Virus record (IMG/VR): IMGVR_UViG_3300036831_000148
Coordinates: 1-64,000 of that record
From: a virus
Reading direction: 5' to 3' (one strand)
DNA: 64,000 nt
The notes under the pieces are model-generated. The model saw only the letters and a list, made by a program, of their open reading frames with translations, ran no database searches and was not told the DNA's origin. Positions 47,728 to 57,489 of this stretch are shown here, piece after piece. The position numbers and the translations under genes are program-made. The first letter of the stretch is position 1. Every line of letters begins with the position of its first letter.

Positions 47728-47845
47728 CATTGGGGCAACTGTAGCATGATGTGGCGGGAGGCCGGTTCCGATCTCTACCCGCGAAGCCGAGTCTCGTACC
47801 CGGCCTCCCGCCTCCACACTCTCCGCAGCGCGAGCATCATGCAAG

Positions 47846-47917
47846 TGACCCGGGGAGGACTCGAACCTCCATCCTCCGCTTAGGAGACGGTAGCCCTATC
47901 CATTGGGCGACCGGGCC
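47846..47917 (-). tRNA. tRNA-Arg(CCT)
   Basis: Cloverleaf; anticodon loop CT CCT AA; TTCGA T-loop. Confidence 0.85.
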
Positions 47918-47918
47918 G

Positions 47919-47995
47919 TGGAGGGAGAGCCGGGAGTCGAACCCGGATGTCACGTTTTGCAGACGTGCGCCTTGACGCGCCTCGGCCACACTCCC
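47919..47995 (-). tRNA. tRNA-Cys(GCA)
   Basis: Loop CT GCA AA; U73; encoded CCA. Confidence 0.85.
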
Positions 47996-48085
47996 ATGGA
48001 CGGGGCTGCACCTGAGTGCGGCAGCCTGCCCCGCTTTACTGGCCCACCGCTACCCGCTGCCAGGTCGCGGCGGTGAACTCAGTCG

Positions 48086-48158
48086 TGCGCCCGAAGGGAC
48101 TCGAACCCCCGACACCCGGCTTCGGAAGCCGGCGCTCTGTCCACTGAGCTACGGGCAC
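48086..48158 (-). tRNA. tRNA-Arg(CCG)
   Basis: Loop TT CCG AA. Confidence 0.9.
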
Positions 48159-48163
48159 CTGAG

Positions 48164-48246
48164 AGGCGCGTGCAGGATTCGAACCTGCGTAGGGCAGAGC
48201 CGGCTGCTTTACAGGCAGCTCCCGTTATCCGCTTGGGTAACGCGCC
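48164..48246 (-). tRNA. tRNA-Tyr(GTA)
   Basis: Loop CT GTA AA; long variable arm; atypical U73. Confidence 0.85.
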
Positions 48247-48247
48247 G

Positions 48248-48322
48248 TGGGGTTGGTAACGAGAATCGAACTCGTATATCTGGAGCCACAGTCCAGCGCT
48301 CTGCCGTTGAGCTATACCGACC
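48248..48322 (-). tRNA. tRNA-His(GTG)
   Basis: G-1 and C73; loop CT GTG GC; encoded CCA. Confidence 0.9.
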
Positions 48323-48323
48323 G

Positions 48324-48397
48324 TGTCCAGTGAGGGATTCGAACCCCCGACGCCTGCCGTGTGGAGGCAGCGCTCTCCCGGGCTGAGCTAACCGGAC
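48324..48397 (-). tRNA. tRNA-Val(CAC)
   Basis: Loop TC CAC AC. Confidence 0.85.
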
Positions 48398-48457
48398 ATG
48401 AAGGACGGCAGGGGGCTGAGCTCGAAGGCGGTGTCAGCCTGCTCACCCGTCGTCCAG

Positions 48458-48530
48458 TACACGCGAGAGGACTCGAACCTCCAACGCACGGCTCCGTAGG
48501 CCGCTGCTCTATCCGTTGAGCTACGCGTGC
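48458..48530 (-). tRNA. tRNA-Arg(ACG)
   Basis: Loop CT ACG GA. Confidence 0.9.
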
Positions 48531-48531
48531 T

Positions 48532-48606
48532 TGGTGGGCGTACCTGGTGCCGACCCAGGGACCTCGTCTGCGTCAGAGACGCGCTCTCCCGCTGAGCTAT
48601 ACGCCC
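48532..48606 (-). tRNA. tRNA-Val(GAC)
   Basis: Loop CT GAC GC; variant T-loop GTCGGCA; encoded CCA. Confidence 0.8.
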
Positions 48607-48790
48607 TCGTTCTGTTGACCAGCGTCAAGAGGCGGGTACCGTTAGTTACGTGGCCTACCTCGTCGTCCTCGGCATCGGCATCTGGATTGGTGCCGTCGCC
48701 GGCCTCAAGTACGGTGCCCGCCGTGCCTTCACCCGGCTCGGCCGGGCCGAGCACGGCGAGCGCATGCGCCGCTCAGGGTTCGGCAGCTAG

Positions 48791-48863
48791 CGGTCCTGAC
48801 GGGATTTGAACCCGCGGCCCTCCGCTCGACAGGCGGACGCTCTACGCACTGAGCTACAAGACC
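48791..48863 (-). tRNA. tRNA-Asp(GTC)
   Basis: Loop CT GTC GA; G73. Confidence 0.9.
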
Positions 48864-48875
48864 ATGTGTACTGCG

Positions 48876-48948
48876 CTCTCCGACCAGGACTCGAACCTGG
48901 AACCTGCTGATTAACGGTCAGTCGCGCTGCCGATTGCGCCACCGGAGA
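48876..48948 (-). tRNA. tRNA-Asn(GTT)
   Basis: Loop CC GTT AA; G73. Confidence 0.88.
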
Positions 48949-49146
48949 TCGTAAACGCCGGGGTACCGTGCCGTTCCCGGCTCCTGGTGATACTCCGCCC
49001 GCTGGACCCGGGCCAGGCTGCAGTTCCCGGCTGTATCCGGCAGGCCCAGGCCCGCCCGAGTAAGGCCCCCGGTTGTTTAGCCCTTATCCAGCAGGGCCAG
49101 CCACGTGTTCCCCGGGGCTTTCGCCGGCCGCCAGTGCCGGGCCTCG

Positions 49147-49222
49147 TAGCGGGGGCAGGATTTGAACCTGCGTATATGCCAGGCTATGAACCTGGTGAGC
49201 GACCAAACTGCTCGACCCCGCG
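49147..49222 (-). tRNA. tRNA-fMet(CAT), initiator-like
   Basis: CGCGGGG 5' end with a 1:72 mismatch; loop TT CAT AG. Confidence 0.8.
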
Positions 49223-49303
49223 CCGCGCGGGGCTTAACCGGACGTGACCCGGAAGCGCACCCGCTGCTTGCGCCACGGCACCAGGGTAAGTCCGGCGCCG
49301 TCG

Positions 49304-49377
49304 TAACCCCAACCGGATTCGAACCGGTGTCGCCCTGCTTGAAGGGCAGGCGTCCTGAGCCGCTAGACGATGGGGCC
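49304..49377 (-). tRNA. tRNA-Glu(TTC)
   Basis: Loop CC TTC AA. Confidence 0.88.
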
Positions 49378-49469
49378 GTGCGTCCTGCCGAGCGGATTTC
49401 AGCCAGCTCCCGGCGCGGACCTCAGAATCCTGCTTTGGCGTGGCCGTCTCCCGCGTAGCAGGCTCTGCG

Positions 49470-49543
49470 TGGTCCTGGCGGGATTCGAACCCGCGCTTTC
49501 CTGCTTGAGGGGCAGACGGCTTAGACCGCTAGCCGACAGGACC
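49470..49543 (-). tRNA. tRNA-Glu(CTC)
   Basis: Loop CC CTC AA. Confidence 0.88.
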
Positions 49544-49548
49544 ATGTG

Positions 49549-49621
49549 TGCGCCGGGGAGGTCCCGAACCCCCGCCGCGCCGCTTAGAAAACGGCCGTTC
49601 TATCCGCTGAACTACCGGCGC
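49549..49621 (-). tRNA. tRNA-Arg(TCT)
   Basis: Loop TT TCT AA. Confidence 0.85.
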
Positions 49622-49625
49622 GCAG

Positions 49626-49698
49626 TGGGCCGCCCGGGACTTGAACCCGGAACACTCGGATTAAAGGTCCGCCGCTCTGCCATTTGCGCTAGCGGCCC
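49626..49698 (-). tRNA. tRNA-Lys(TTT)
   Basis: Loop CC TTT AA. Confidence 0.85.
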
Positions 49699-49699
49699 G

Positions 49700-49776
49700 T
49701 GGTAGCGGTAGCCGGGCTCGAACCGGCGGCCCTCCCATTATGAGTGGGACGCTCTGACCGACTGAGCTATACCGCC
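49700..49776 (-). tRNA. tRNA-Met(CAT), elongator
   Basis: Loop CT CAT AA; encoded CCA; Ile2 identity not excluded. Confidence 0.85.
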
Positions 49777-49777
49777 G

Positions 49778-49852
49778 TAGGCTGCCGTGGAGTCGAACCA
49801 CGCTGCTAACTGCGTATCAGGCAGTCCCCGTCAACCGGCTGGGTCGCAGCCC
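49778..49852 (-). tRNA. tRNA-Ile(GAT)
   Basis: Loop CT GAT AC; atypical D-arm. Confidence 0.75.
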
Positions 49853-50033
49853 TCGCTTGAAACTCGACAGCAACAGTTACCGTGTGTACGCTGTCGGATG
49901 CGAGCAGTAAAAGACGCTGCTCGTAAAGGCAAGGCACCGTCACCCTCCAGGGGCGCGGCCCGTCAGGCCTTTGGCTGCATTACGGAGGCGGCGCTCGTCG
50001 GCCCACTACAGGCGCCGCCTCACGCCAGCCTCG

Positions 50034-50119
50034 CAGAGGGTTGAGGTGCCGACCCCCACGGCCCTCCCGGGCCGCCGCCTGTTTTCTAGACAGGATGTCC
50101 CGCCGGGGACGAACCCTCC
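50034..50119 (-). tRNA. tRNA-Ser(AGA), 8/4 fold
   Basis: 8-bp acceptor GGAGGGTT/AACCCTCT; 4-bp T-stem; long variable arm; G73; loop CT AGA AA. Confidence 0.7.
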
Positions 50120-50189
50120 AGGTATCCGCGGTCACCCTCGGGCAGGTGCTCGGCCAGCCCCGACACCGGCCAGGATCGCGGCATCCAGG

Positions 50190-50273
50190 CAGAGAGCGGA
50201 CGACTCGAACGCCACGGCTTGCACCGCGAGCCCGCTAGCAACGGGTCCTGGCCGCCTGGCCAGTTCACTCTCC
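50190..50273 (-). tRNA. tRNA-Ser(GCT), 8/4 fold
   Basis: 8-bp acceptor; 6-bp D-stem CTGGCC/GGCCAG; 4-bp T-stem; G73; loop TT GCT AG. Confidence 0.75.
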
Positions 50274-50345
50274 AGGTGCAGGACTTTTTGAAACCGGGCG
50301 CAACCCGGGGGCGTCCTGCGTGCCCTCGCCGCCTGCGCGGCCGAG

Positions 50346-50430
50346 TGGGCGGGGAGGGATTCGAACCCTCACGTCCCTCCCGGGACACACGGTCCTGAGC
50401 CGTGCGTGGCTGCCGTTACACCACTCGCCC
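50346..50430 (-). tRNA. tRNA-Leu(CAG)
   Basis: Loop CT CAG GA; long variable arm. Confidence 0.88.
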
Positions 50431-50598
50431 ATGCTCCCCGGGCTGTTCTCCCTTGACTGGTCCGGGCCCGGGGGGCCGGCAGGGAGCCAGGTCGGCGCTC
50501 GCGCGCTGAGCTTCCCGGCCTCCTGCAGGAGGCCGGTCCGCCTGGAAGTGTCTGGGTGCTCCCCGGCTGCGCGTCCGCTAGCCGGCTTGCCCCCATAG

Positions 50599-50671
50599 AG
50601 CCGACGACGGGATTCGAACCCGCGGCCCTCACCTTGGCAAGGTGATGCGCTACCAACTGCGCCACGTCGAC
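50599..50671 (-). tRNA. tRNA-Gly(GCC)
   Basis: Loop TT GCC AA; U73. Confidence 0.9.
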
Positions 50672-50710
50672 AAGCCGGACGGCCAGCCGCCGTCCGGGGT
50701 TCACCGGGCG

Positions 50711-50929
50711 TTAGCCGCCCTCCACAATCTCCCTGACCGAGGTCCGGGACCGGCCGGGCACCTGGATGCCGGACACCTCGCCGTCCGCCGCGGCGAACGT
50801 GAGGTGCACGGTCGTGCCCCTGAACTTCAGGGTGCACCCCACCGCCTCCGGGTGCACGCGGACCGTCAGGTCCACGTTGACGTCGCCCACTCCTACTGCG
50901 GCGGCGCCGCGGTTGCTCGTGCTGGCCAT
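50711..50929 (-). CDS. Hypothetical beta-rich protein
   Basis: 72 aa; GGAGG RBS. Confidence 0.5.
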   Translation of the reverse strand: MASTSNRGAAAVGVGDVNVDLTVRVHPEAVGCTLKFRGTTVHLTFAAADGEVSGIQVPGRSRTSVREIVEGG

Positions 50930-51018
50930 CAGGTTGCCTCCTCCACCGTGACCGTGACCGACGCCTCAGCAGTGTTGCCTGCGGCGTCGGTCGCGGTGGC
51001 GGTAATGACCAGGTCCAC
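50929..51018 (-). CDS. 29-aa peptide duplicating an internal segment of the upstream Ig-like protein
   Basis: VDLVITATATDAAGNTAEASVTVTVEE versus VSLVISATATDADGNTAAASVNVTVVE; TAGTG coupling. Confidence 0.45.
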   Translation of the reverse strand: MDLVITATATDAAGNTAEASVTVTVEEAT

Positions 51019-51347
51019 TAGCTGGGCGGCGTCACGGTCGTGGTGAGGACCGCCGTGCCGGTGCCGTTGGACAGGGTGTTGGACTGCTCGGTGTAGGTGT
51101 CGCCGAAGGAGTCGCTCGCGGCGACGTCCATGGACTCGCTGGCCTGCTCCACCACGGTCACGTTCACCGAGGCCGCAGCCGTGTTGCCGTCGGCGTCGGT
51201 CGCGGTGGCGGAGATGACCAGGGAGACCGGGTTGGACGCGCTGTCGGCGTAGGCCGCCGTCAGGGTCAGCGTCTGGCCGGCCGTGTAGCTGTCAGCGTCA
51301 GTGGTCAGGGTCAGCGTCGGCGTGCCGGGGGCAGGGGGCGTGGTCAT
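51018..51347 (-). CDS. Ig-like (Big) domain protein, probable virion decoration
   Basis: ATATDADGNTAAASVNVTV Ig motif; AGGAGAGG RBS; CGATTAG motif upstream. Confidence 0.65.
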   Translation of the reverse strand: MTTPPAPGTPTLTLTTDADSYTAGQTLTLTAAYADSASNPVSLVISATATDADGNTAAASVNVTVVEQASESMDVAASDSFGDTYTEQSNTLSNGTGTAVLTTTVTPPS

Positions 51348-51419
51348 GGGGTTCCTCTCCTGGAAAACCTGGGTCCCCACGCTAATCGCCACCAGCCCGC
51401 CGTGTCCGGCGAACGCGAG

Positions 51420-51493
51420 AGCCTCCACCCGGAGCCGAACCGGGGACCTCGCCCGTACCAAGGGCGTGCTCGTTCCAACTGAGCTATAGAGGC
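51420..51493 (-). tRNA. tRNA-Thr(GGT)
   Basis: Loop TT GGT AC. Confidence 0.88.
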
Positions 51494-51535
51494 ATGCCAG
51501 GAACGCGCCTTCACGCGACAGGTGACTAATGAAGG

Positions 51536-51608
51536 CTCCGGGGGCCGGGCTCGAACCGGCGTGCCCTTGGTCCAAAGCCAAGGCGGGATGCCGTCAACCC
51601 ACCCCGGA
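51536..51608 (-). tRNA. tRNA-Gln(TTG)
   Basis: U1-A72; G73; loop CT TTG GA. Confidence 0.8.
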
Positions 51609-51613
51609 CCGAG

Positions 51614-51686
51614 CTGGGCGACAGGGACTTGAACCCTGACCCGCGGGACCATAACCCGCTGCTCTGCCGTTTTGAGCTAGCGCCCA
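51614..51686 (-). tRNA. tRNA with ATG anticodon (nominally His) on a Gln-like body
   Basis: Stem GCGGG/CCCGC with loop TT ATG GT; U1-A72, G2-C71, G3-C70, G73. Confidence 0.75.
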
Positions 51687-51689
51687 CTG

Positions 51690-51762
51690 AGCCGGTTACC
51701 GGACTCGAACCGGTCGCCCGCAGCTTACAAGGCTGCTGCTCTGCCAGGTGAGCTAAACCGGC
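51690..51762 (-). tRNA. tRNA-Thr(TGT)
   Basis: Loop CT TGT AA. Confidence 0.88.
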
Positions 51763-51766
51763 AAGG

Positions 51767-51852
51767 TGTCCGGGGCGGGACTTGAACCCGCAGCGCCCGT
51801 AGCGGGCACCAGCACCTCAAGCTGGCGCGTCTGCCTATTCCGCCACCCGGAC
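51767..51852 (-). tRNA. tRNA-Leu(GAG)
   Basis: Loop TT GAG GT; long variable arm. Confidence 0.9.
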
Positions 51853-51982
51853 AAAAGCGGGAGACCCGGTGACCGGACCCCGGCGCGCACCGGGGCGGCT
51901 GCCCTCGCTCCACCTGCGTGACCGCCTTGCGCGAGGCGGCTTCCGGTGGCGAGTCACCTGGGGATGCTGCACGTCTCCCTAG

Positions 51983-52050
51983 AGCCGCTGCCCGGTGCCG
52001 ACCCGGGTCGCCCGCCGTACGAAGGCGGGGCCGCAGCCGTGCGCGGCGGC
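51983..52050 (-). tRNA. tRNA-Thr(CGT), atypical with minimal D-arm
   Basis: Loop TT CGT AC; GCC/GGC acceptor; T-loop GTCGGCA. Confidence 0.6.
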
Positions 52051-52109
52051 AGGCCTCCGGGCGTTTGCCCCCGCGCAAGCGCTTACGGGGGTTATAGGCA
52101 CCGGAGGTT

Positions 52110-52187
52110 GCGGTTGCTCTGGGCCACTGAGCTACCGGACGCCCCTTCCAGGGAGACCGGGCGGGATTCGGACCCGCGACCTTCCGC
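52110..52187 (-). ncRNA. Circularly permuted tRNA-like element #3 (no anticodon loop)
   Basis: Order: GCGG, T-arm (GCGGG TCCGAAT CCCGC), closed acceptor stem, TA, D-arm (GCTC...GAGC), CCGC. Confidence 0.65.
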
Positions 52188-52189
52188 TG

Positions 52190-52261
52190 CTGGAGTACCT
52201 GGACTCGAACCAAGACCGGCGGGTCCAGGGCCCGTCGCGCTGCCAATTACGCCATACTCCA
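52190..52261 (-). tRNA. tRNA-Gln(CTG)
   Basis: U1-A72; G73; loop CC CTG GA. Confidence 0.85.
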
Positions 52262-52360
52262 AGGCGGGAGGGCTCTTTGCTGACCCTCCGACTAACGGCC
52301 TTGCTCCCCGGCTCCCGGGGGACCGGACAGGGATTTGCAGGACGGCCCTGTCAGCCGTTG

Positions 52361-52436
52361 TAGGCGAGACGGGAATCGAACCCGCAAGAAGACGCGGGTT
52401 TTGAAGCCGCCGCATATGCCGTTCTGCTACTCGCCC
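52361..52436 (-). tRNA. tRNA-Leu(CAA), short variable arm
   Basis: Loop TT CAA AA; C31:C39 mismatch; A73. Confidence 0.7.
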
Positions 52437-52440
52437 GAAG

Positions 52441-52512
52441 TACCCCGCCAGGGACTCGAACCCTGACCTCACGGATTAAGAGTCCGCTGCTCTGCCATTG
52501 AGCTAACGAGGC
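52441..52512 (-). tRNA. tRNA-Lys(CTT)
   Basis: Loop CT CTT AA. Confidence 0.9.
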
Positions 52513-52780
52513 TTGAAGCCCGGTGCCCAGCCCGCTCCCCCTGCCGTCCGGACTCGAACCGGGAGGTGCGCACCCTTGCTGGTAACCACTCGCCTGAGAC
52601 CGGGCCGCAGCCCCGCTGGCGGCCGCCAGCGGAGAGCAGGCCGGCCCCGTGCCAGCAGCAGAGGGGGCGGGCTGGGAACCGGGAAGAACAACCCGGACCT
52701 GTTCCGGCCTCACGGCACTTATGCGAGGTGCCGTAGTCTTTTGGCCAGCCGGTTTCCGGGGGCGGTATGCATCCCGCCAG

Positions 52781-52853
52781 AGCCCCACCGGGGAATTGAA
52801 CCCCGCTAACCAGCTTGGAAGGCTGGCACATCGCCACTGAATGCTTGTAGGGC
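52781..52853 (-). tRNA. tRNA-Gly(TCC)
   Basis: Loop CT TCC AA; U73; overlapped by the 3' end of the endonuclease ORF. Confidence 0.8.
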
Positions 52854-53264
52854 AAGATCTACTTCCGGCCATAGCTCTCGAATGCGTGCGCGCCGGCGCG
52901 CACCAAGCCAGGGCCACACTTTCAAGGTCAGCCACTCACGGTGAGGCCGAGCCGCAACCTGCCAAATCCAGGCCGTCTTATAGCCACGAACGCTCTCCTC
53001 GCGGGTGATGCGGCCGACACCAGTCACGCTGAACAATCGCTCAACGATGTCCTCGTCCGTCATTCGAACAGCTACTACCCACCGCCCCTGTCGGTTCGGA
53101 CCACCCGTCCAGCAGCCCTCACCCTCCAAGATGCCTGCAATCCAGGCAACCTCGGGAGCAGTGACCGCCTCACGGGGGCTGCCGATGTCGGTGTAACGGC
53201 ACTTTCGGCACCGTTCCGCCGTATACCTCTTACGAGTGCCACAAGCACAAAGGTTGTACCCCAT
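52806..53264 (-). CDS. LAGLIDADG homing endonuclease with N-terminal Cys motif
   Basis: WIAGILEGEG motif followed by V.MTD.D...G.G. Confidence 0.8.
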   Translation of the reverse strand: MGYNLCACGTRKRYTAERCRKCRYTDIGSPREAVTAPEVAWIAGILEGEGCWTGGPNRQGRWVVAVRMTDEDIVERLFSVTGVGRITREESVRGYKTAWIWQVAARPHREWLTLKVWPWLGARRRARIRELWPEVDLALQAFSGDVPAFQAG

Positions 53265-53282
53265 ACCTGTGTTACGTGCAGG

Positions 53283-53355
53283 TGGTCACGGGGGCGCCCG
53301 AATCCCCGGCATGCTGCTTTTCAGGCAGCCGCTCTACCATCTGAGCTACGCGACC
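53283..53355 (-). tRNA. tRNA-Phe(GAA)
   Basis: Loop CT GAA AA; atypical T-arm. Confidence 0.8.
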
Positions 53356-53475
53356 GTGGATGACAGCGCACCCAGCCCGCCCGGGGAACCCGGTACCCCG
53401 GCACGAACTCGGGACAGGCGTCCCTGCTTCGGCCGACCACCGGGTTATGCCGGCTCCTGCCTAGGCGCTGCCAAG

Positions 53476-53546
53476 TCGGGATACAGGGAGTCGAACCCCG
53501 GCTGACTGGCCCCAGACCAGGCGCGCTTCCGTTACGCAATATCCCG
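53476..53546 (-). tRNA. tRNA-Pro(TGG), atypical
   Basis: CGGG/CCCG A acceptor; loop TC TGG GG. Confidence 0.65.
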
Positions 53547-53548
53547 TC

Positions 53549-53615
53549 ACAGGCGTTCAGACCGCTGAACTACCAGGCCGAAGCCCTCGCCCGGAGTTGA
53601 ACCGGGATTTCCTGC
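53549..53615 (-). ncRNA. Circularly permuted tRNA-like element #2 (acceptor stem closed by a UUCG tetraloop)
   Basis: GCAGG AAAT CCCGG TTCAACT CCGGG CGAGGGC TTCG GCCTGG TA GTTC AGCGGTCT GAAC G CCTGT. Confidence 0.7.
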
Positions 53616-53620
53616 TTGCG

Positions 53621-53696
53621 TCGGGCTGGGCGGATTCGAACCGCCGTCCTCCCGGCCCCCAGCCGGGCGCGCTGAGCCAAACTGCGCTACAGCCCG
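53621..53696 (-). tRNA. tRNA-Pro(GGG)
   Basis: Loop CT GGG GG. Confidence 0.88.
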
Positions 53697-53818
53697 ATGT
53701 TTCGCGCGGGGTACCATCTCCCGCTCCCTGGGTCGCTAACCACTACCAGCCAGTGCCGTACGCTCACCAGCTGGCCCGGCCCGTCCGGCATGCGCCGTCA
53801 GGACCCCAGGCCCTTACG

Positions 53819-53893
53819 TCGGGGTGGGGAGATTCGAACTCCCGACCTCTACGTCCCGAACGTAGCGCGCTAGCCAAGCTGCGCCACACCCCG
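53819..53893 (-). tRNA. tRNA-Pro(CGG)
   Basis: Loop TT CGG GA. Confidence 0.9.
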
Positions 53894-54005
53894 ATGGAGC
53901 CGCATGTTTTACCCAGTCCGGGCGGTTGGAGGCCCGCCGGCTCGTCAGGTTACCTTTTGCCCGGTGATCAACTCCGGAATAGGATGCCTTGCCTGGCATG
54001 CGACG

Positions 54006-54079
54006 TGGAGCTTGCGGGAATCGAACCCGCGGCCTCTGCATTGCGAGTGCAGCGCACTACCAAGCTGTGCTAAAGCCCC
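54006..54079 (-). tRNA. tRNA-Ala(CGC)
   Basis: G3-U70; loop CT CGC AA. Confidence 0.9.
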
Positions 54080-54080
54080 A

Positions 54081-54220
54081 GATGCGGCGCTCTGCCATTG
54101 AGCTACCCGGATCAGTCAGCAGGCCGGCTGCCGGGGCGTTCCGCTACGCGTACTAGCCCGGCGCTCGGCGCCCGCTGCCTTCGCATCTCCGGGACGGGGG
54201 TCGAACCCGCGTCTCCCGCC
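54081..54220 (-). ncRNA. Circularly permuted tRNA-like element #1
   Basis: 3' half GGCGG GAGAC GCGGG TTCGACC CCCGT CCCGGA, then a ~70-nt insert, then 5' half TCCGGG TA GCTC AATGGCA GAGC G CCGC. Confidence 0.65.
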
Positions 54221-54221
54221 G

Positions 54222-54294
54222 TGGAGCCTAGGGGAGTCGAACCCCTGACCTTTTGCATGCCATGCAAACGCGCTACCTGCTGCGCCAAGGCCCC
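54222..54294 (-). tRNA. tRNA-Ala(GGC)
   Basis: G3-U70; loop AT GGC AT. Confidence 0.9.
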
Positions 54295-54483
54295 AGGGCG
54301 CGACAGCGGGACCGCGGTGTGAACACGGTCCCGCTGCCACGTCAGACCCCGCCGCCCGCCGAAGCGGGCAACGGGAGAACTCGCGGCGGGCTGGCAACCC
54401 GCCGCCTTACGATGCTCACGCTGTGGAGATGTCAAGGTTCGTTGACATTCACCCGCTCGGGCTCTCGCCGTCGCCGGTGGTCG

Positions 54484-54555
54484 CAAGGACGGGAGGGGTC
54501 GAACCTCCGCCACTGGTTTTGGAGACCAGCGCTCTGCCTGTTGAGCTACGTCCCT
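54484..54555 (-). tRNA. tRNA-Trp(CCA), first gene of the array
   Basis: Loop CT CCA AA; G73. Confidence 0.9.
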
Positions 54556-54564
54556 ATGAAACTG

Positions 54565-54599
54565 AAAAACCGCCCTGTCCGGAGCTTCCGGGGGCGGTT
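54565..54599 (-). terminator. Attenuator terminator immediately upstream of the tRNA array
   Basis: AACCGCCC CCGGA AGC TCCGG ACA GGGCGGTT TTT; ends about 10 nt before tRNA-Trp. Confidence 0.8.
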
Positions 54600-54620
54600 C
54601 CTGCTGGTCAGGACTAGTCC

Positions 54621-54731
54621 TTAGCCAGGAACCACCTCGCCGGGGATGAAGTTGTGCTCAGGCAGGAGCATGCTTGCGCACGGGCTGGCGTACCACCCTC
54701 GCGACTGCTGCTTTGACTGCCTGGCCATCAT
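54621..54731 (-). CDS. Putative leader peptide MMARQSKQQSRGWYASPCASMLLPEHNFIPGEVVPG
   Basis: 36 codons; AGGGAG RBS; stop about 20 nt before the terminator; 3' end complementary to the terminator 5' arm. Confidence 0.65.
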   Translation of the reverse strand: MMARQSKQQSRGWYASPCASMLLPEHNFIPGEVVPG

Positions 54732-54774
54732 GCTCCCTAACGTATCCGCTGCGGCCCGCCCGGGCCACTCTTTA

Positions 54775-54805
54775 AAGGTACTACCTTGCTTGACTGTTGT
54801 CAAGC
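54775..54805 (-). promoter_or_regulatory. Sigma70/HrdB-type promoter P2 with palindromic operator
   Basis: TTGACA-N17-TACCTT; GCTTGAC-N4-GTCAAGC overlaps the -35. Confidence 0.75.
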
Positions 54806-54872
54806 TATTTACCGGGGAAGTTCGCGGGACCCGGCCCTACCGGGTCCCGCGACCCCTCTTCCGACAGGCACC

Positions 54873-54901
54873 ACCGTACTACCCCTCTTGACTGCTGTCA
54901 A
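54873..54901 (-). promoter_or_regulatory. Sigma70/HrdB-type promoter P1 with palindromic operator
   Basis: TTGACA-N17-TACGGT; TTGAC-N4-GTCAA; near-duplicate of P2. Confidence 0.7.
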
Positions 54902-55364
54902 ACATACTGCCCAGCCCGCCGGAGGCCACGCCGCCGCGGTCGGCGTCCACCGCCCGGCGGACCAGCGGGTGCATGACCGCCAGGATCTCCACCGGCCCGG
55001 CCCGGCACACCCGGACTGCCGCCTGCGCGTCGGCGAACCGCCCCGCCGGCTCCCCGACCCGGGCGGCGAGCTCGGCCAGCGACCGCTCCCAGTCCGCCTC
55101 ACCCAGCCCGGCCACGTGCGCCATCAGCTTCTCGAACGGCATCGCCGGGCGGGTCACCCGGACGAAGGTACCCGCCCCCTGGCGGGCCTCGGCCAGCCCC
55201 TCGCGGACGATCACGTCCAGCGCCTTGCGGGCGGTCGCCCGGGCGACCCCGTACGACATCATCAGGTCGTTCTCGCCGGGCAGCCGGCTCCCGGGCGGGA
55301 AGGTGCCCGCGGCGATGCCGGTACGCAGGTCGGCGGCGATCAGGGGGTACCTGGGGCGCTCCAC
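54879..55364 (-). CDS. GntR-family transcriptional regulator
   Basis: Y..IA..LR..I..G.F.PG.RLP.E..L...YGVAR.TARKAL..I..EGL...QG.GTFV winged helix. Confidence 0.88.
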   Translation of the reverse strand: MERPRYPLIAADLRTGIAAGTFPPGSRLPGENDLMMSYGVARATARKALDVIVREGLAEARQGAGTFVRVTRPAMPFEKLMAHVAGLGEADWERSLAELAARVGEPAGRFADAQAAVRVCRAGPVEILAVMHPLVRRAVDADRGGVASGGLGSMFDSSQEG

Positions 55365-55524: not shown

Positions 55525-57489
55525 TCACTGCGCGTAGTCCCCGCTGACGCTGCCCCAGTCGTCCAGGTAGCTGGACCCGTACTCGAAGCCCGGCCGGTCA
55601 CCGGGCAGGAACTGGTCGGGACCGAGCATCACCAGCGTCCCCGGCATTCCCGCGGGCGAGGGGATGTCCGCCTCCGGCCCGTAGAACGAGACCTGGCCGG
55701 GATAGGCGCGCTTGCCGTTCGGGTCCTCCTGGCCCCCGGCCTCCAGCGCGCCGCAGGCCGCGCCGGCGAGGGAGTCGGCCTCGTCCTTGGACGAGTCGCC
55801 CAGGTGGTCGATCTTGCCGTTCGGCAGCCGGGACAGGCCGAGCAGCTCCACCACGGTCAGCTCCCGGGCCGGCATCTGCAGCCTGCCCTCGTACATGAGG
55901 TCGCGCAGGGTGCGCCAGCCCTCCTCCGACACGTCGGTGGAGAACCGGTCGGTCTCGATGCCGTGGCTCTCCAGGATCTGCATGCTGTCCTTGGACTGCC
56001 ACTGGTCAAAGGTGAAGCGGACCACCGGGAAACCCATCCGGCGCAGCTCCAGGCACAGCATCCGCGCCCAGCGGATCTGGATCTCCATCGGCGGCACCGC
56101 GCCGGGGCTGGACTCGTAGCTGATGGTGAAGTCCACCTTCACCACCGGGCGGCGCTCCTGGACCTGGATCTCCAGGCCGTCCTCGTCGTAGCCGGTCAGG
56201 GCGTGATCCTGCCAGCGCTTGACGTGGGCCATCGACACGCCGGCCCGGTCGCCGGTGGCCGCCAGGTCGGCGTGCATCGCGTACAGCGCGCCCTTCACCG
56301 GGAACAGCTCAGGGCTGAAGGTGTACTGCGGCTTCCAGGTGGCGCCCTCGCGCACGTAGGAGACGCTCACCGGCGGCATGACGTACTCGGTCAGGCAGTC
56401 GCGGATCGCCGCCTCGTTGGCGAAGTACGGGTTGATGGCGCGCCGCGGGCGGCACTCGTACTTGGCCTCCGCCAGCGCCGGGTCCTTCTCGTAGTCCTCG
56501 GCGAACGACTCCTTGCCCTTGATCCGCGGGTTCGCCTCCCAGGTGGCGAGCGGCCCGGACACGTAGTAGCGGCTGGCCTCGCCCTTGGCCTCGTTGTCGG
56601 CCTTGCCCTTCGCCACCAGTTGCTGGATGGTGCTGCCCAGGTAGCGCGGGTAGGAGATGTGGACGTTCTTGAACGTCTCCGGGAACCGCGTAGTGGCGCT
56701 GGTCCGGATCATGTCCAGGATCGCCTCGGCCGAACTGGAGGACTCGCGCTGCTTGGCCCCGCCTGACTTGGCGAGCTCGGCGGCCGAGCGGAACGCGTCG
56801 ATCTCGTCGGCGATCCCCAGGATCAGGTTCAGCCCCTCCTGGCTGTCGGCGTCGCTGTGCCCGGAGACCGCCTCGATGTTGTGCTCGAACCGGATGGTGT
56901 CCAGCAGCGCGGTGGTCCGCTCGCCGCGGCTGCCCCGGCGCTGCCGCTCGGCGGCGTCCAGGATGTCCACGCCCTGGCGCTGGAACCAGCAGCCGGGCCG
57001 GCCGACGGCGCGGCGCATGGGGGCGAAGAACGCGCGCTGCGCCTGCTTCGAAGATGATGCGACGTTCAGGACGTGGATCGAATCCTGCTCGGGCATCCGG
57101 TAGTAAAGCTGCGGACTCTTCAGGCACAGCAGCAGGTAGCAGACCCGCATGGCGATCATCCGGCAGGTGTGGTCCTTGCCTCCGCCCTTGCCCCACTCCA
57201 GCTCCAGGAAGTTGACCATCCTGGTCGGCTGGCTCCAGTAGTCCCGGACCTTCCGCTCGGCGCTGCCCGCCAGCAGGGCGTAGGTGTCCAGGTAGTAGAC
57301 CCGCTCGGCGTGCCGCACCGCCTCGTACTGGACGTCGCTCAGCGGCGGGTTCGCCAGGTAGGCGCGGTCCTGCACGAACACGTCAAGCGGGACCGGCTCC
57401 TCCTCGAAGATGCTGGTCCCGCTTACGGAGGTGCCAGTGCCGCCGACCGCCCCGAGCAGGGCCGCCGCGGCAGCGCCGGCTGACGCCAC
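55525..57489 (-). CDS. terL: Terminase large subunit
   Basis: Walker A WGKGGGKD; Walker B ILGIADEIDAF; nuclease motifs HADLA..GD, FDQWQS and KDEADS. Confidence 0.9.
   Translation of the reverse strand: MASAGAAAAALLGAVGGTGTSVSGTSIFEEEPVPLDVFVQDRAYLANPPLSDVQYEAVRHAERVYYLDTYALLAGSAERKVRDYWSQPTRMVNFLELEWGKGGGKDHTCRMIAMRVCYLLLCLKSPQLYYRMPEQDSIHVLNVASSSKQAQRAFFAPMRRAVGRPGCWFQRQGVDILDAAERQRRGSRGERTTALLDTIRFEHNIEAVSGHSDADSQEGLNLILGIADEIDAFRSAAELAKSGGAKQRESSSSAEAILDMIRTSATTRFPETFKNVHISYPRYLGSTIQQLVAKGKADNEAKGEASRYYVSGPLATWEANPRIKGKESFAEDYEKDPALAEAKYECRPRRAINPYFANEAAIRDCLTEYVMPPVSVSYVREGATWKPQYTFSPELFPVKGALYAMHADLAATGDRAGVSMAHVKRWQDHALTGYDEDGLEIQVQERRPVVKVDFTISYESSPGAVPPMEIQIRWARMLCLELRRMGFPVVRFTFDQWQSKDSMQILESHGIETDRFSTDVSEEGWRTLRDLMYEGRLQMPARELTVVELLGLSRLPNGKIDHLGDSSKDEADSLAGAACGALEAGGQEDPNGKRAYPGQVSFYGPEADIPSPAGMPGTLVMLGPDQFLPGDRPGFEYGSSYLDDWGSVSGDYAQ

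Follow-up and report, generated by a model that had tools for sequence, protein, structure and literature searches.

Classical leader-peptide attenuators such as trpL, hisL, thrL and ilvL contain a short ORF that overlaps an antiterminator competing with an intrinsic terminator, and a ribosome stalled at hungry codons allows read-through. In their leaders the regulatory codons stand in runs for one to three amino acids, and the genes under control encode biosynthetic enzymes. The trpL leader also has a protector helix that causes termination when the leader is untranslated. The uORF of whiB7/wblC has a broader range. Its full translation leads to termination and a stall leads to the antiterminator, its composition sets broad amino-acid sensing, and removal of its single Trp codon abolished the response to Trp (10.1101/2023.06.02.543512). 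In mycobacteria, ribosome stalling on a leaderless polycysteine sORF controls the downstream operon (10.1101/834739). The 26-tRNA array of the Anabaena trn operon is induced by translational stress through the repressor TrcR (PMC8421152, PMC10272220). Why phages carry tRNA genes has been an open question for more than 50 years, and phage tRNAs have been discussed as a counter to host anticodon nucleases (PMC10264068). Our literature search, with most subscription papers outside its reach, found no report on attenuation of phage or other tRNA arrays.

The locus described here lies in a stretch of 64,000 nt, hereafter the window, which is the first 64 kb of the virus record IMGVR_UViG_3300036831_000148 (146,268 nt, 144-nt end repeat, G+C ~70%). 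Among cultured phages, its terminase is closest to that of Microbacterium phage Magritte (46%) and then to those of Streptomyces phages (31%), and the host of this uncultured soil-type actinophage would thus be an actinobacterium. A tRNA array is located between the terminase and portal genes on the minus strand, with tRNA-Trp starting at 54555 (Table 1). An earlier note, made from the letters of the window, had proposed that a short ORF ahead of the array is a leader-peptide attenuator and had placed 37 further tRNAs behind tRNA-Trp; ARAGORN gives 37 in all, 36 of them after tRNA-Trp, and not 38. The attenuator reading itself is supported by the homologous leaders, by the completeness of their amino-acid sets, by a blind zone at the ORF end and by a search of the array in which no good sense-strand promoter was found. 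We consider it quite probable that the leader acts as a transcription attenuator coupled to the ribosome, through which overall decoding speed decides whether the array is expressed. The phage and its relatives would then probably make the array tRNAs mainly when ribosomes struggle to decode.

Table 1 Features of the leader region and its surroundings, with the two Magritte leaders. Positions refer to the window unless an accession is given.
Feature	Position	Strand	Basis or remark
Leader ORF, 36 codons, 18 amino-acid kinds	54621–54731	minus	Sequence, translation, homolog comparison
Predicted sensing zone, codons 2–29, 17 kinds (Asp, Thr, Val absent)	54645–54728	minus	Folding scan and placement of diversity
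Antiterminator 5' strand, last ORF codons	54626–54636	minus	Folding, RNAalifold, covariation, random-duplex tests
Strand shared by the antiterminator (3' strand) and the terminator (5' arm)	54593–54603	minus	Folding, RNAalifold, covariation
Intrinsic-terminator-like hairpin with bulge and five-U tail	54565–54599	minus	Folding
Promoter P1 (−35 TTGACA, 17 nt, −10 TACGGT)	54873–54901	minus	Carries phage-wide palindrome; overlaps end of GntR-domain ORF
Promoter P2 (−35 TTGACA, 17 nt, −10 TACCTT)	54775–54803	minus	Same palindrome as P1
Promoter P3 (A/T tract 54776–54771, 3 nt, −35 54767–54762, 17 nt, −10 54744–54739)	54739–54776	minus	WhiB7/WblC-type layout
7-nt spacer, also Shine-Dalgarno-like, spaced for codon 2	54732–54738	minus	Putative alternative initiation on P1/P2 transcripts
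Array of 37 tRNA genes for all 20 amino acids, first tRNA-Trp	47845–54555	minus	Regulated unit; ARAGORN
GntR winged-helix domain sharing its frame with a small conserved ORF	54879–55364	minus	Small ORF precedes leader promoter in most relatives
Terminase large subunit	55525–57489	minus	Context; used for finding syntenic relatives
Magritte leader A, 15 codons	OR553905 69383–69430 (L235:2884–2931)		Codon for 8/8 tRNAs behind it
Magritte leader B, 23 codons	OR553905 71140–71211 (L235:4641–4712)		Covers 11/15 tRNAs behind it

The predicted polarity of the phage leader is the same as that of the whiB7/wblC uORF. The distance from stop codon to terminator is 20–27 nt in the phage leaders and 25 nt (median) in host whiB7 leaders, and the promoters of both have an A-tract 3 nt before the −35 box. 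Because the whiB7/wblC uORF is a published broad attenuator of amino-acid and translation stress with the same polarity, the attenuator logic is not new. In contrast, the host whiB7 uORFs are Shine-Dalgarno (SD)-led and long (median of 99 codons, with 19.5 amino-acid kinds through their length), whereas the phage leader is predicted to be leaderless and has 17–20 kinds in 31–38 codons, with an Ala fraction of 0.11 versus 0.16. The terminator sequences differ as well, and the phage leader would control tRNA genes while the whiB7 uORF controls a transcription factor. Comparison with 68 host whiB7 leaders by nhmmer detected no homology (best E 0.57), and capture of the leader from a host whiB7 was rejected on this result. 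The genome has no WhiB gene. By this comparison, the best reading is that the phage leader works like the whiB7 uORF but is not homologous to it.

Relative to trpL, hisL, thrL and ilvL, the phage leader has approximately one codon per amino acid, no conserved protector helix, and tRNA as the product. Assignment to this classical type was rejected, as the defining codon runs are absent (the rare residues occur about once each) and the downstream genes are tRNAs. The polycysteine sORF is similar in being a leaderless short ORF in Actinobacteria, but it concerns one amino acid and acts through sequestration of a ribosome-binding site, which tRNA genes do not have. The Anabaena trn operon resembles the phage array in being long, held silent, and turned on under translational stress, but there a repressor protein acts at initiation; neither "attenuat" nor "leader" occurs in PMC8421152. 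The anticodon-nuclease idea of PMC10264068 supplies a motive, namely tRNA depletion during infection of Actinobacteria, but that paper deals with tRNA sequence and not with expression control, and "attenuat" is absent from it.

Sequence and translation confirmed the 36-codon leader ORF in the window, as well as its reported composition of 18 amino-acid kinds (no Asp and no Thr) in 27 different codons, with W, Y, C, H, N, F, I and K occurring once each. AGG, TCA, CGA, GCA, CCT and GTT, which had been called unusual, are used at 1.8–7.1 per 1000 in the long genes of the phage. The window alone is weak evidence, as 18 kinds in 36 codons is barely above chance (P about 0.04). Having 27 codons is ordinary for random DNA of the same GC (P 0.5) but not for phage genes (P 0.005), and the codon count was rejected as evidence in itself. 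A scan of both strands of the whole genome for an ORF of 20–50 codons encoding 17 or more kinds, together with a hairpin that has a T tail and pairs with the ORF end, with thresholds set after the site had been seen, returned the window leader as the only site with the full architecture. Blastn of the region against cultured phages gave matches to tRNA-Trp only. Rfam models searched over 54556–54905 with E up to 5 gave no T-box, riboswitch or other family. A T-box riboswitch or another Rfam cis-element was rejected on this result and on the lack of a conserved fold upstream of the antiterminator, and T-box-like and SRP-like words spotted by eye were dropped.

A total of 18 leaders were analyzed, consisting of the window leader and 17 homologs, and 12 of them (including that of the window) are clearly distinct. 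Relatives in IMG/VR with terminase identities of 76–88% have the same tRNA array in the same order. All eight distinct terminase relatives with the array have a promoter, an ORF of 31–38 codons and a hairpin before tRNA-Trp, and one relative (L021, terminase 85% identical) has neither the array nor the leader unit. Pattern scans added nine more leaders from metagenomes and one distant virus record (L102). Since the metagenome search pattern requires tandem start codons, a stop codon and part of the helix, only the nine leaders found by synteny are unbiased for these elements. Approximately two-thirds of the metagenome pattern matches were due to chance and were discarded for want of a matching ORF, promoter or array; the matches of two further DNA patterns were unrelated or were left out of the sample. 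Every true homolog has an ORF of 31–38 codons, a hairpin 20–27 nt past the stop codon and then a tRNA array. The short ORF between the promoter and the regulated genes is conserved in frame and length in all 18 leaders. The comparative test suggested in the earlier note was thereby carried out: the homologs keep the short ORF, a near-complete amino-acid set and the pairing between ORF end and terminator. Peptide identity to the window leader falls as low as 29%, and the peptide alignment is too variable to serve as a search query.

The 18 leaders contain 17–20 amino-acid kinds each, compared with 14–15 expected, and in six of them the set of 20 is complete (P about 0.001 each). Column permutation reduced the number of kinds from 18.9 to 16.9 ± 0.3 (0/5000), indicating that residues lost from one position are regained elsewhere. 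Because misalignment could inflate this result, evolution was also simulated on the leader tree from five starting sequences, which were real leaders with up to 20 kinds. The simulations gave 15.6–16.3 kinds against 18.8–19.0 observed (0/1500), with the same outcome in all ten settings. Exactly one Cys is present in each of the 12 distinct leaders, at four different alignment columns, while Phe occupies eight columns and Trp three; each of the rare residues is present about once. Completeness has been kept up in the face of drift. The diversity is packed upstream of the last eight codons (216 versus 199 ± 3.7, 0/5000).

The choice of codons is also conserved. Where the residue is the same, the codon is the same in 0.83 of cases in the leader (52% amino-acid identity), compared with 0.67 in the adjacent ORF (56%) and 0.74 in the terminase (85%), and this share rises to 0.87 within the sensing zone and drops to 64% over the last codons. 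TCA and AGG are present in 18/18 leaders and CGA in 17/18, with expected presence of 0.10, 0.32, and 0.04, respectively. Selection acts on the codons rather than on peptide function. The sensing zone has no conserved fold, and in the ORF body RNAalifold found no helix except that the Leu-Pro codons might form a 6-bp pairing with the 3' arm of the terminator; a nucleotide signal at codons 4–6 is possible.

These data bear on an alternative explanation, in which the product of the ORF is a small peptide with a function of its own and the terminator behind it is an ordinary one. Expression of the array would then depend on leak-through or on promoters elsewhere, and the pairing would be fortuitous. 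A GC3 of 0.74–0.84 does point to a real reading frame, and a few residues (Met1, Gly12 and Pro17 of the window) are kept; the terminator wins at equilibrium, as described below, and a conserved element just after tRNA-Trp contains a TTGACA-like word. This word, however, has no −10 box at 16–19 nt. The rare residues shift position among peptides of such low identity, synonymous sites are more conserved than in the neighbouring genes, and in 17/18 leaders a constant distance separates the ORF end from the terminator arm with which it pairs. No PHROG family matches the leader product, and no called gene with that product is on record. We therefore regard the functional-peptide explanation as very unlikely.

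Leader codons do not strictly follow the tRNAs of the array; the idea of a codon roster was considered and is not supported in this family. TCA, CTA and GCA are kept in the leaders, while the arrays have no Ser-UGA or Leu-UAG tRNAs and Ala-UGC is missing in 10/11 of them. In the L019 lineage, a 19-kind leader precedes only 15–16 tRNAs for eight amino acids. Retention of codons with no cognate array tRNA suggests that general decoding health is read and that some stalls would not be relieved by the phage tRNAs. These mismatches would also suit a switch tuned to general ribosome failure or to infection timing (antibiotics, shut-off, uncoupling), for which completeness is secondary; the array would then come on as a block late in infection and would not answer the loss of a particular tRNA. 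The resemblance of P3 to the WhiB7/WblC promoter, which responds to ribosome-targeting drugs, points in this direction, as does the predicted formation of the antiterminator in the absence of a ribosome, no conserved protector helix being seen. Yet a general stall sensor needs no completeness, and completeness is maintained here with positional turnover and is confined to the sensing zone; in addition, the first leader of phage Magritte matches all of its downstream tRNAs. Tuning to general failure or timing is in our view unlikely, and we retain the reading of an attenuator that responds to decoding speed across nearly all amino acids.

The 11-bp helix between the last ORF codons and the shared strand, and the hairpin with five T, fold as the earlier note had described. 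The last five or six ORF codons pair with the terminator 5' arm in 17 of the 18 leaders. This antiterminator is the RNAalifold consensus helix and the preferred nascent fold in 17/18, with energies of −20 to −30 kcal/mol compared with −23 to −30 kcal/mol for the terminator. In the folding scan, its nascent probability is near 1 and falls to near 0 once the A site is within approximately seven codons of the stop; the proposed blind zone of the last 7–8 codons is seen both in folding and in the placement of diversity. In the folding model, the antiterminator and terminator are mutually exclusive and a ribosome at the stop codon lies over the antiterminator. In 9/12 cases the duplex formed by the ORF end scores better than at least 99% of random genome 18-mers, and one lineage has a different ORF end together with a correspondingly different partner strand. 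Covariation is modest: 93% of the antiterminator cells are paired (8/500 shuffles), but changes on both sides occur in only two of ten pairs (190/500 shuffles), and most of the variation is G-U wobble. The ORF-end pairing is weak in one homolog (L017).

At equilibrium, the full RNA of most homologs prefers the terminator even without a ribosome (0.67 for the window), and the equilibrium folding scan gave no clean switch, the zeros for L013 and L017 in that scan being a register artefact. The switch must therefore be kinetic and rely on folding order.

The U-tail is absent in two lineages (L034/L072/L079/L091 and L019/L080), one of which has an RNase P RNA gene in its array, and the hairpin lies 10–30 nt from tRNA-Trp. 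Such features would be expected of a post-transcriptional switch, in which the position of the ribosome determines whether the hairpin protects the tRNA precursor from, or exposes it to, Rho, RNase E/J or RNase P. Against this, most homologs including the window have a G+C stem followed by 5–6 T. Furthermore, an HNH-like ORF is inserted between the hairpin and tRNA-Trp in one relative (L012:12519–12911); with the switch left intact, tRNA-Trp now lies ~400 nt farther from it, an arrangement more readily explained by transcriptional control than by local processing. Post-transcriptional switching is accordingly given a very small probability.

Two TTGACA promoters had been noticed upstream of the leader. 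Both are present and have TANNNT −10 boxes, but a third one, P3, had been overlooked. P1 and P2 belong to a phage-wide promoter family with the palindrome TTGAC-N4-GTCAA, of which the 146-kb genome contains 30 exact copies. The relatives have one palindrome promoter of this type before the leader and not two, and the counterpart of P2 is located 85–155 nt upstream of the ORF in all homologs checked except L102. At P3, a TANNNT or CANNNT hexamer with variable middle bases is found 6–7 nt before the first ATG in all 18 leaders, and L102 has a perfect TTGACA 17 nt upstream of it. An AAA tract just before the −35 box is present in 18/18 leaders, compared with 1/32 other phage promoters and 1% of genome 8-mers.

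Transcription start sites in Streptomyces are located 7–8 bp after the −10 box (PMC7157823), and on this spacing P3 is predicted to start at the A of the ATG, giving a leaderless transcript. WblC-activated promoters carry GAAAWY 3 bp before the −35 box (PMC7157823; layout also in PMC3905903). Promoters of this class are recognized by an A/T-rich motif 3 bp upstream of the −35 box, a spacer of 16–19 and a TANNNT −10 box; P3 follows this layout, and so do the host whiB7 promoters fetched for comparison. Its A/T tract agrees with GAAAWY at 2–6 of six positions; the match is exact in two homologs, and the window has 2/6 but is fully A/T. We give an even chance to regulation of P3 by WhiB7/WblC, the activator with which the host answers translation stress; the switch would then receive stress signals by a second path. 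An effect of the A-tract as such is just as possible. A phage-encoded WhiB was set aside, since the gene is absent from this genome and present in two of five relatives, and the one that was read (L231) has no AT-hook. Codon 2 is ATG or GTG in every homolog (RTG in 9/9 of those found by synteny alone), and together with the SD-like spacer this suggests that P2 transcripts could load ribosomes too.

A stock promoter/terminator scan of the window found neither the promoters nor the bulged terminator. Promoters downstream of the terminator, which would argue against attenuation, were sought on the sense strand inside the array: none of the phage family was present, and a relaxed scan gave a single match inside a tRNA gene, so that no good one was found.

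The proposed attenuator would work as follows. Host RNA polymerase would start at P3 and produce a leaderless RNA beginning at the ATG; starting from P2 or P1 instead, translation would initiate at codon 2. The ribosome would follow through the leader, reading about one codon for almost every amino acid as well as the slow codons AGG, TCA and CGA. On reaching the last ~7 codons in time, it would cover the antiterminator 5' strand, the terminator would fold, and transcription would stop 10 nt before tRNA-Trp. If the ribosome stalled in codons 2–29, or if no ribosome were loaded, the ORF end would capture the terminator 5' arm, and the polymerase would read on into the 37 tRNA genes. The newly made tRNAs would speed decoding and close the loop. 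The natural signal may be starvation, antibiotics or anticodon nucleases. Within this scheme, the conserved anatomy, the selection on completeness and on codon choice, the mutually exclusive helices and the geometry come from the comparison of leaders, and translation, termination and read-through upon a stall are predicted.

A cultured phage may have leaders of a similar kind. In Magritte (OR553905, host Microbacterium foliorum), each of two tRNA sub-arrays is preceded by a short ORF that is unannotated (leaders A and B in Table 1). Both begin 7 nt after a −10 box, apparently leaderless, and both are followed by competing helices and a T-tailed hairpin. The match of leader A to the tRNAs behind it has a null mean of 3.7 (P 0.0004), and for the other block it covers 4/15; the match of leader B has P 0.01, with 4/8 for the other block, and its antiterminator appears in the nascent fold only. 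Leader B is antisense to annotated gene 99. As these leaders were picked out by eye from three cultured phages, show no sequence similarity to the window leader and, in the case of leader A, were found in no second record, they are regarded as a lead only. In the tRNA regions of Streptomyces phage Peebs and Gordonia phage Forza, the architecture was not found at the 17-kind threshold.

We tentatively put forward, as a possibility short of an even chance, that the array is an inducible repair kit that counters anticodon-nuclease defence through two inputs derived from the host, a WhiB7/WblC-switched promoter and a leaderless checklist of 36 codons. Such a kit would open when almost any tRNA, including the initiator, is cut or uncharged, and the codon-matched leaders of the Microbacterium phage would be versions of it. 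The leader codons under selection would record which shortages the phage expects, making the question of tRNA purpose testable. If the attenuator reading is true, leader-peptide attenuation extends from enzymes and resistance genes to tRNA genes, and selection for amino-acid completeness is shown in an ORF of 30–38 codons. Magritte on M. foliorum offers a cultured system for bench work, and the leader element could be turned into a compact reporter with which decoding stress is followed in Actinobacteria.

Several other elements were observed around the leader and within the arrays. The small conserved ORF upstream of the leader stands alone in the relatives, and its GntR fusion or insertion is apparently specific to the window genome. 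An HNH endonuclease gene at 52806–53264 overlaps tRNA-Gly. The tRNAs called Ser(AGA) and His(ATG), at 50033–50119 and 51613–51686, have anticodons absent from ten related arrays and are possibly decayed or miscalled. In array spacers at 52092–52201, 54062–54230 and ~53540–53620, halves resembling tRNA occur in permuted order; they score weakly as YrlA (Y RNA), the best E being 9e-4 and short of the gathering score. The phage genome has no TROVE/Ro60 gene. The conserved non-tRNA element after tRNA-Trp (54480–54380) is present in all homologs examined and consists of a tetraloop hairpin, an invariant 15–18-nt word and a second hairpin. It has no Rfam match and could be a processing signal or a small RNA. 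The spacer after tRNA-Trp in two relatives (L014:12800–12950 and L018:12900–13050) has words that we take to resemble a twister ribozyme, with no twister among the Rfam matches listed. The RNase P RNA gene in the array of a related phage (L019:13548–13929) is of the bacterial type (RF00010, 113.9 bits, above the gathering score).

The TTGAC-N4-GTCAA palindrome overlaps the −35 box of about 30 promoters and is a likely operator for a phage regulator. Its promoter sites are located at 98,000–140,300 of the genome, outside the window, and at 54901, 54803 and 48615–48628 in the window. Downstream of many of these promoters, a repeated motif that ends in GGCAGGCA lies immediately ahead of start codons and resembles a ribosome-binding signal of an unusual kind. 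One palindrome-bearing promoter lies antisense inside the array (48615–48809, plus strand) and faces a short ORF with a hydrophobic start, and several relatives have the palindrome at a similar place.
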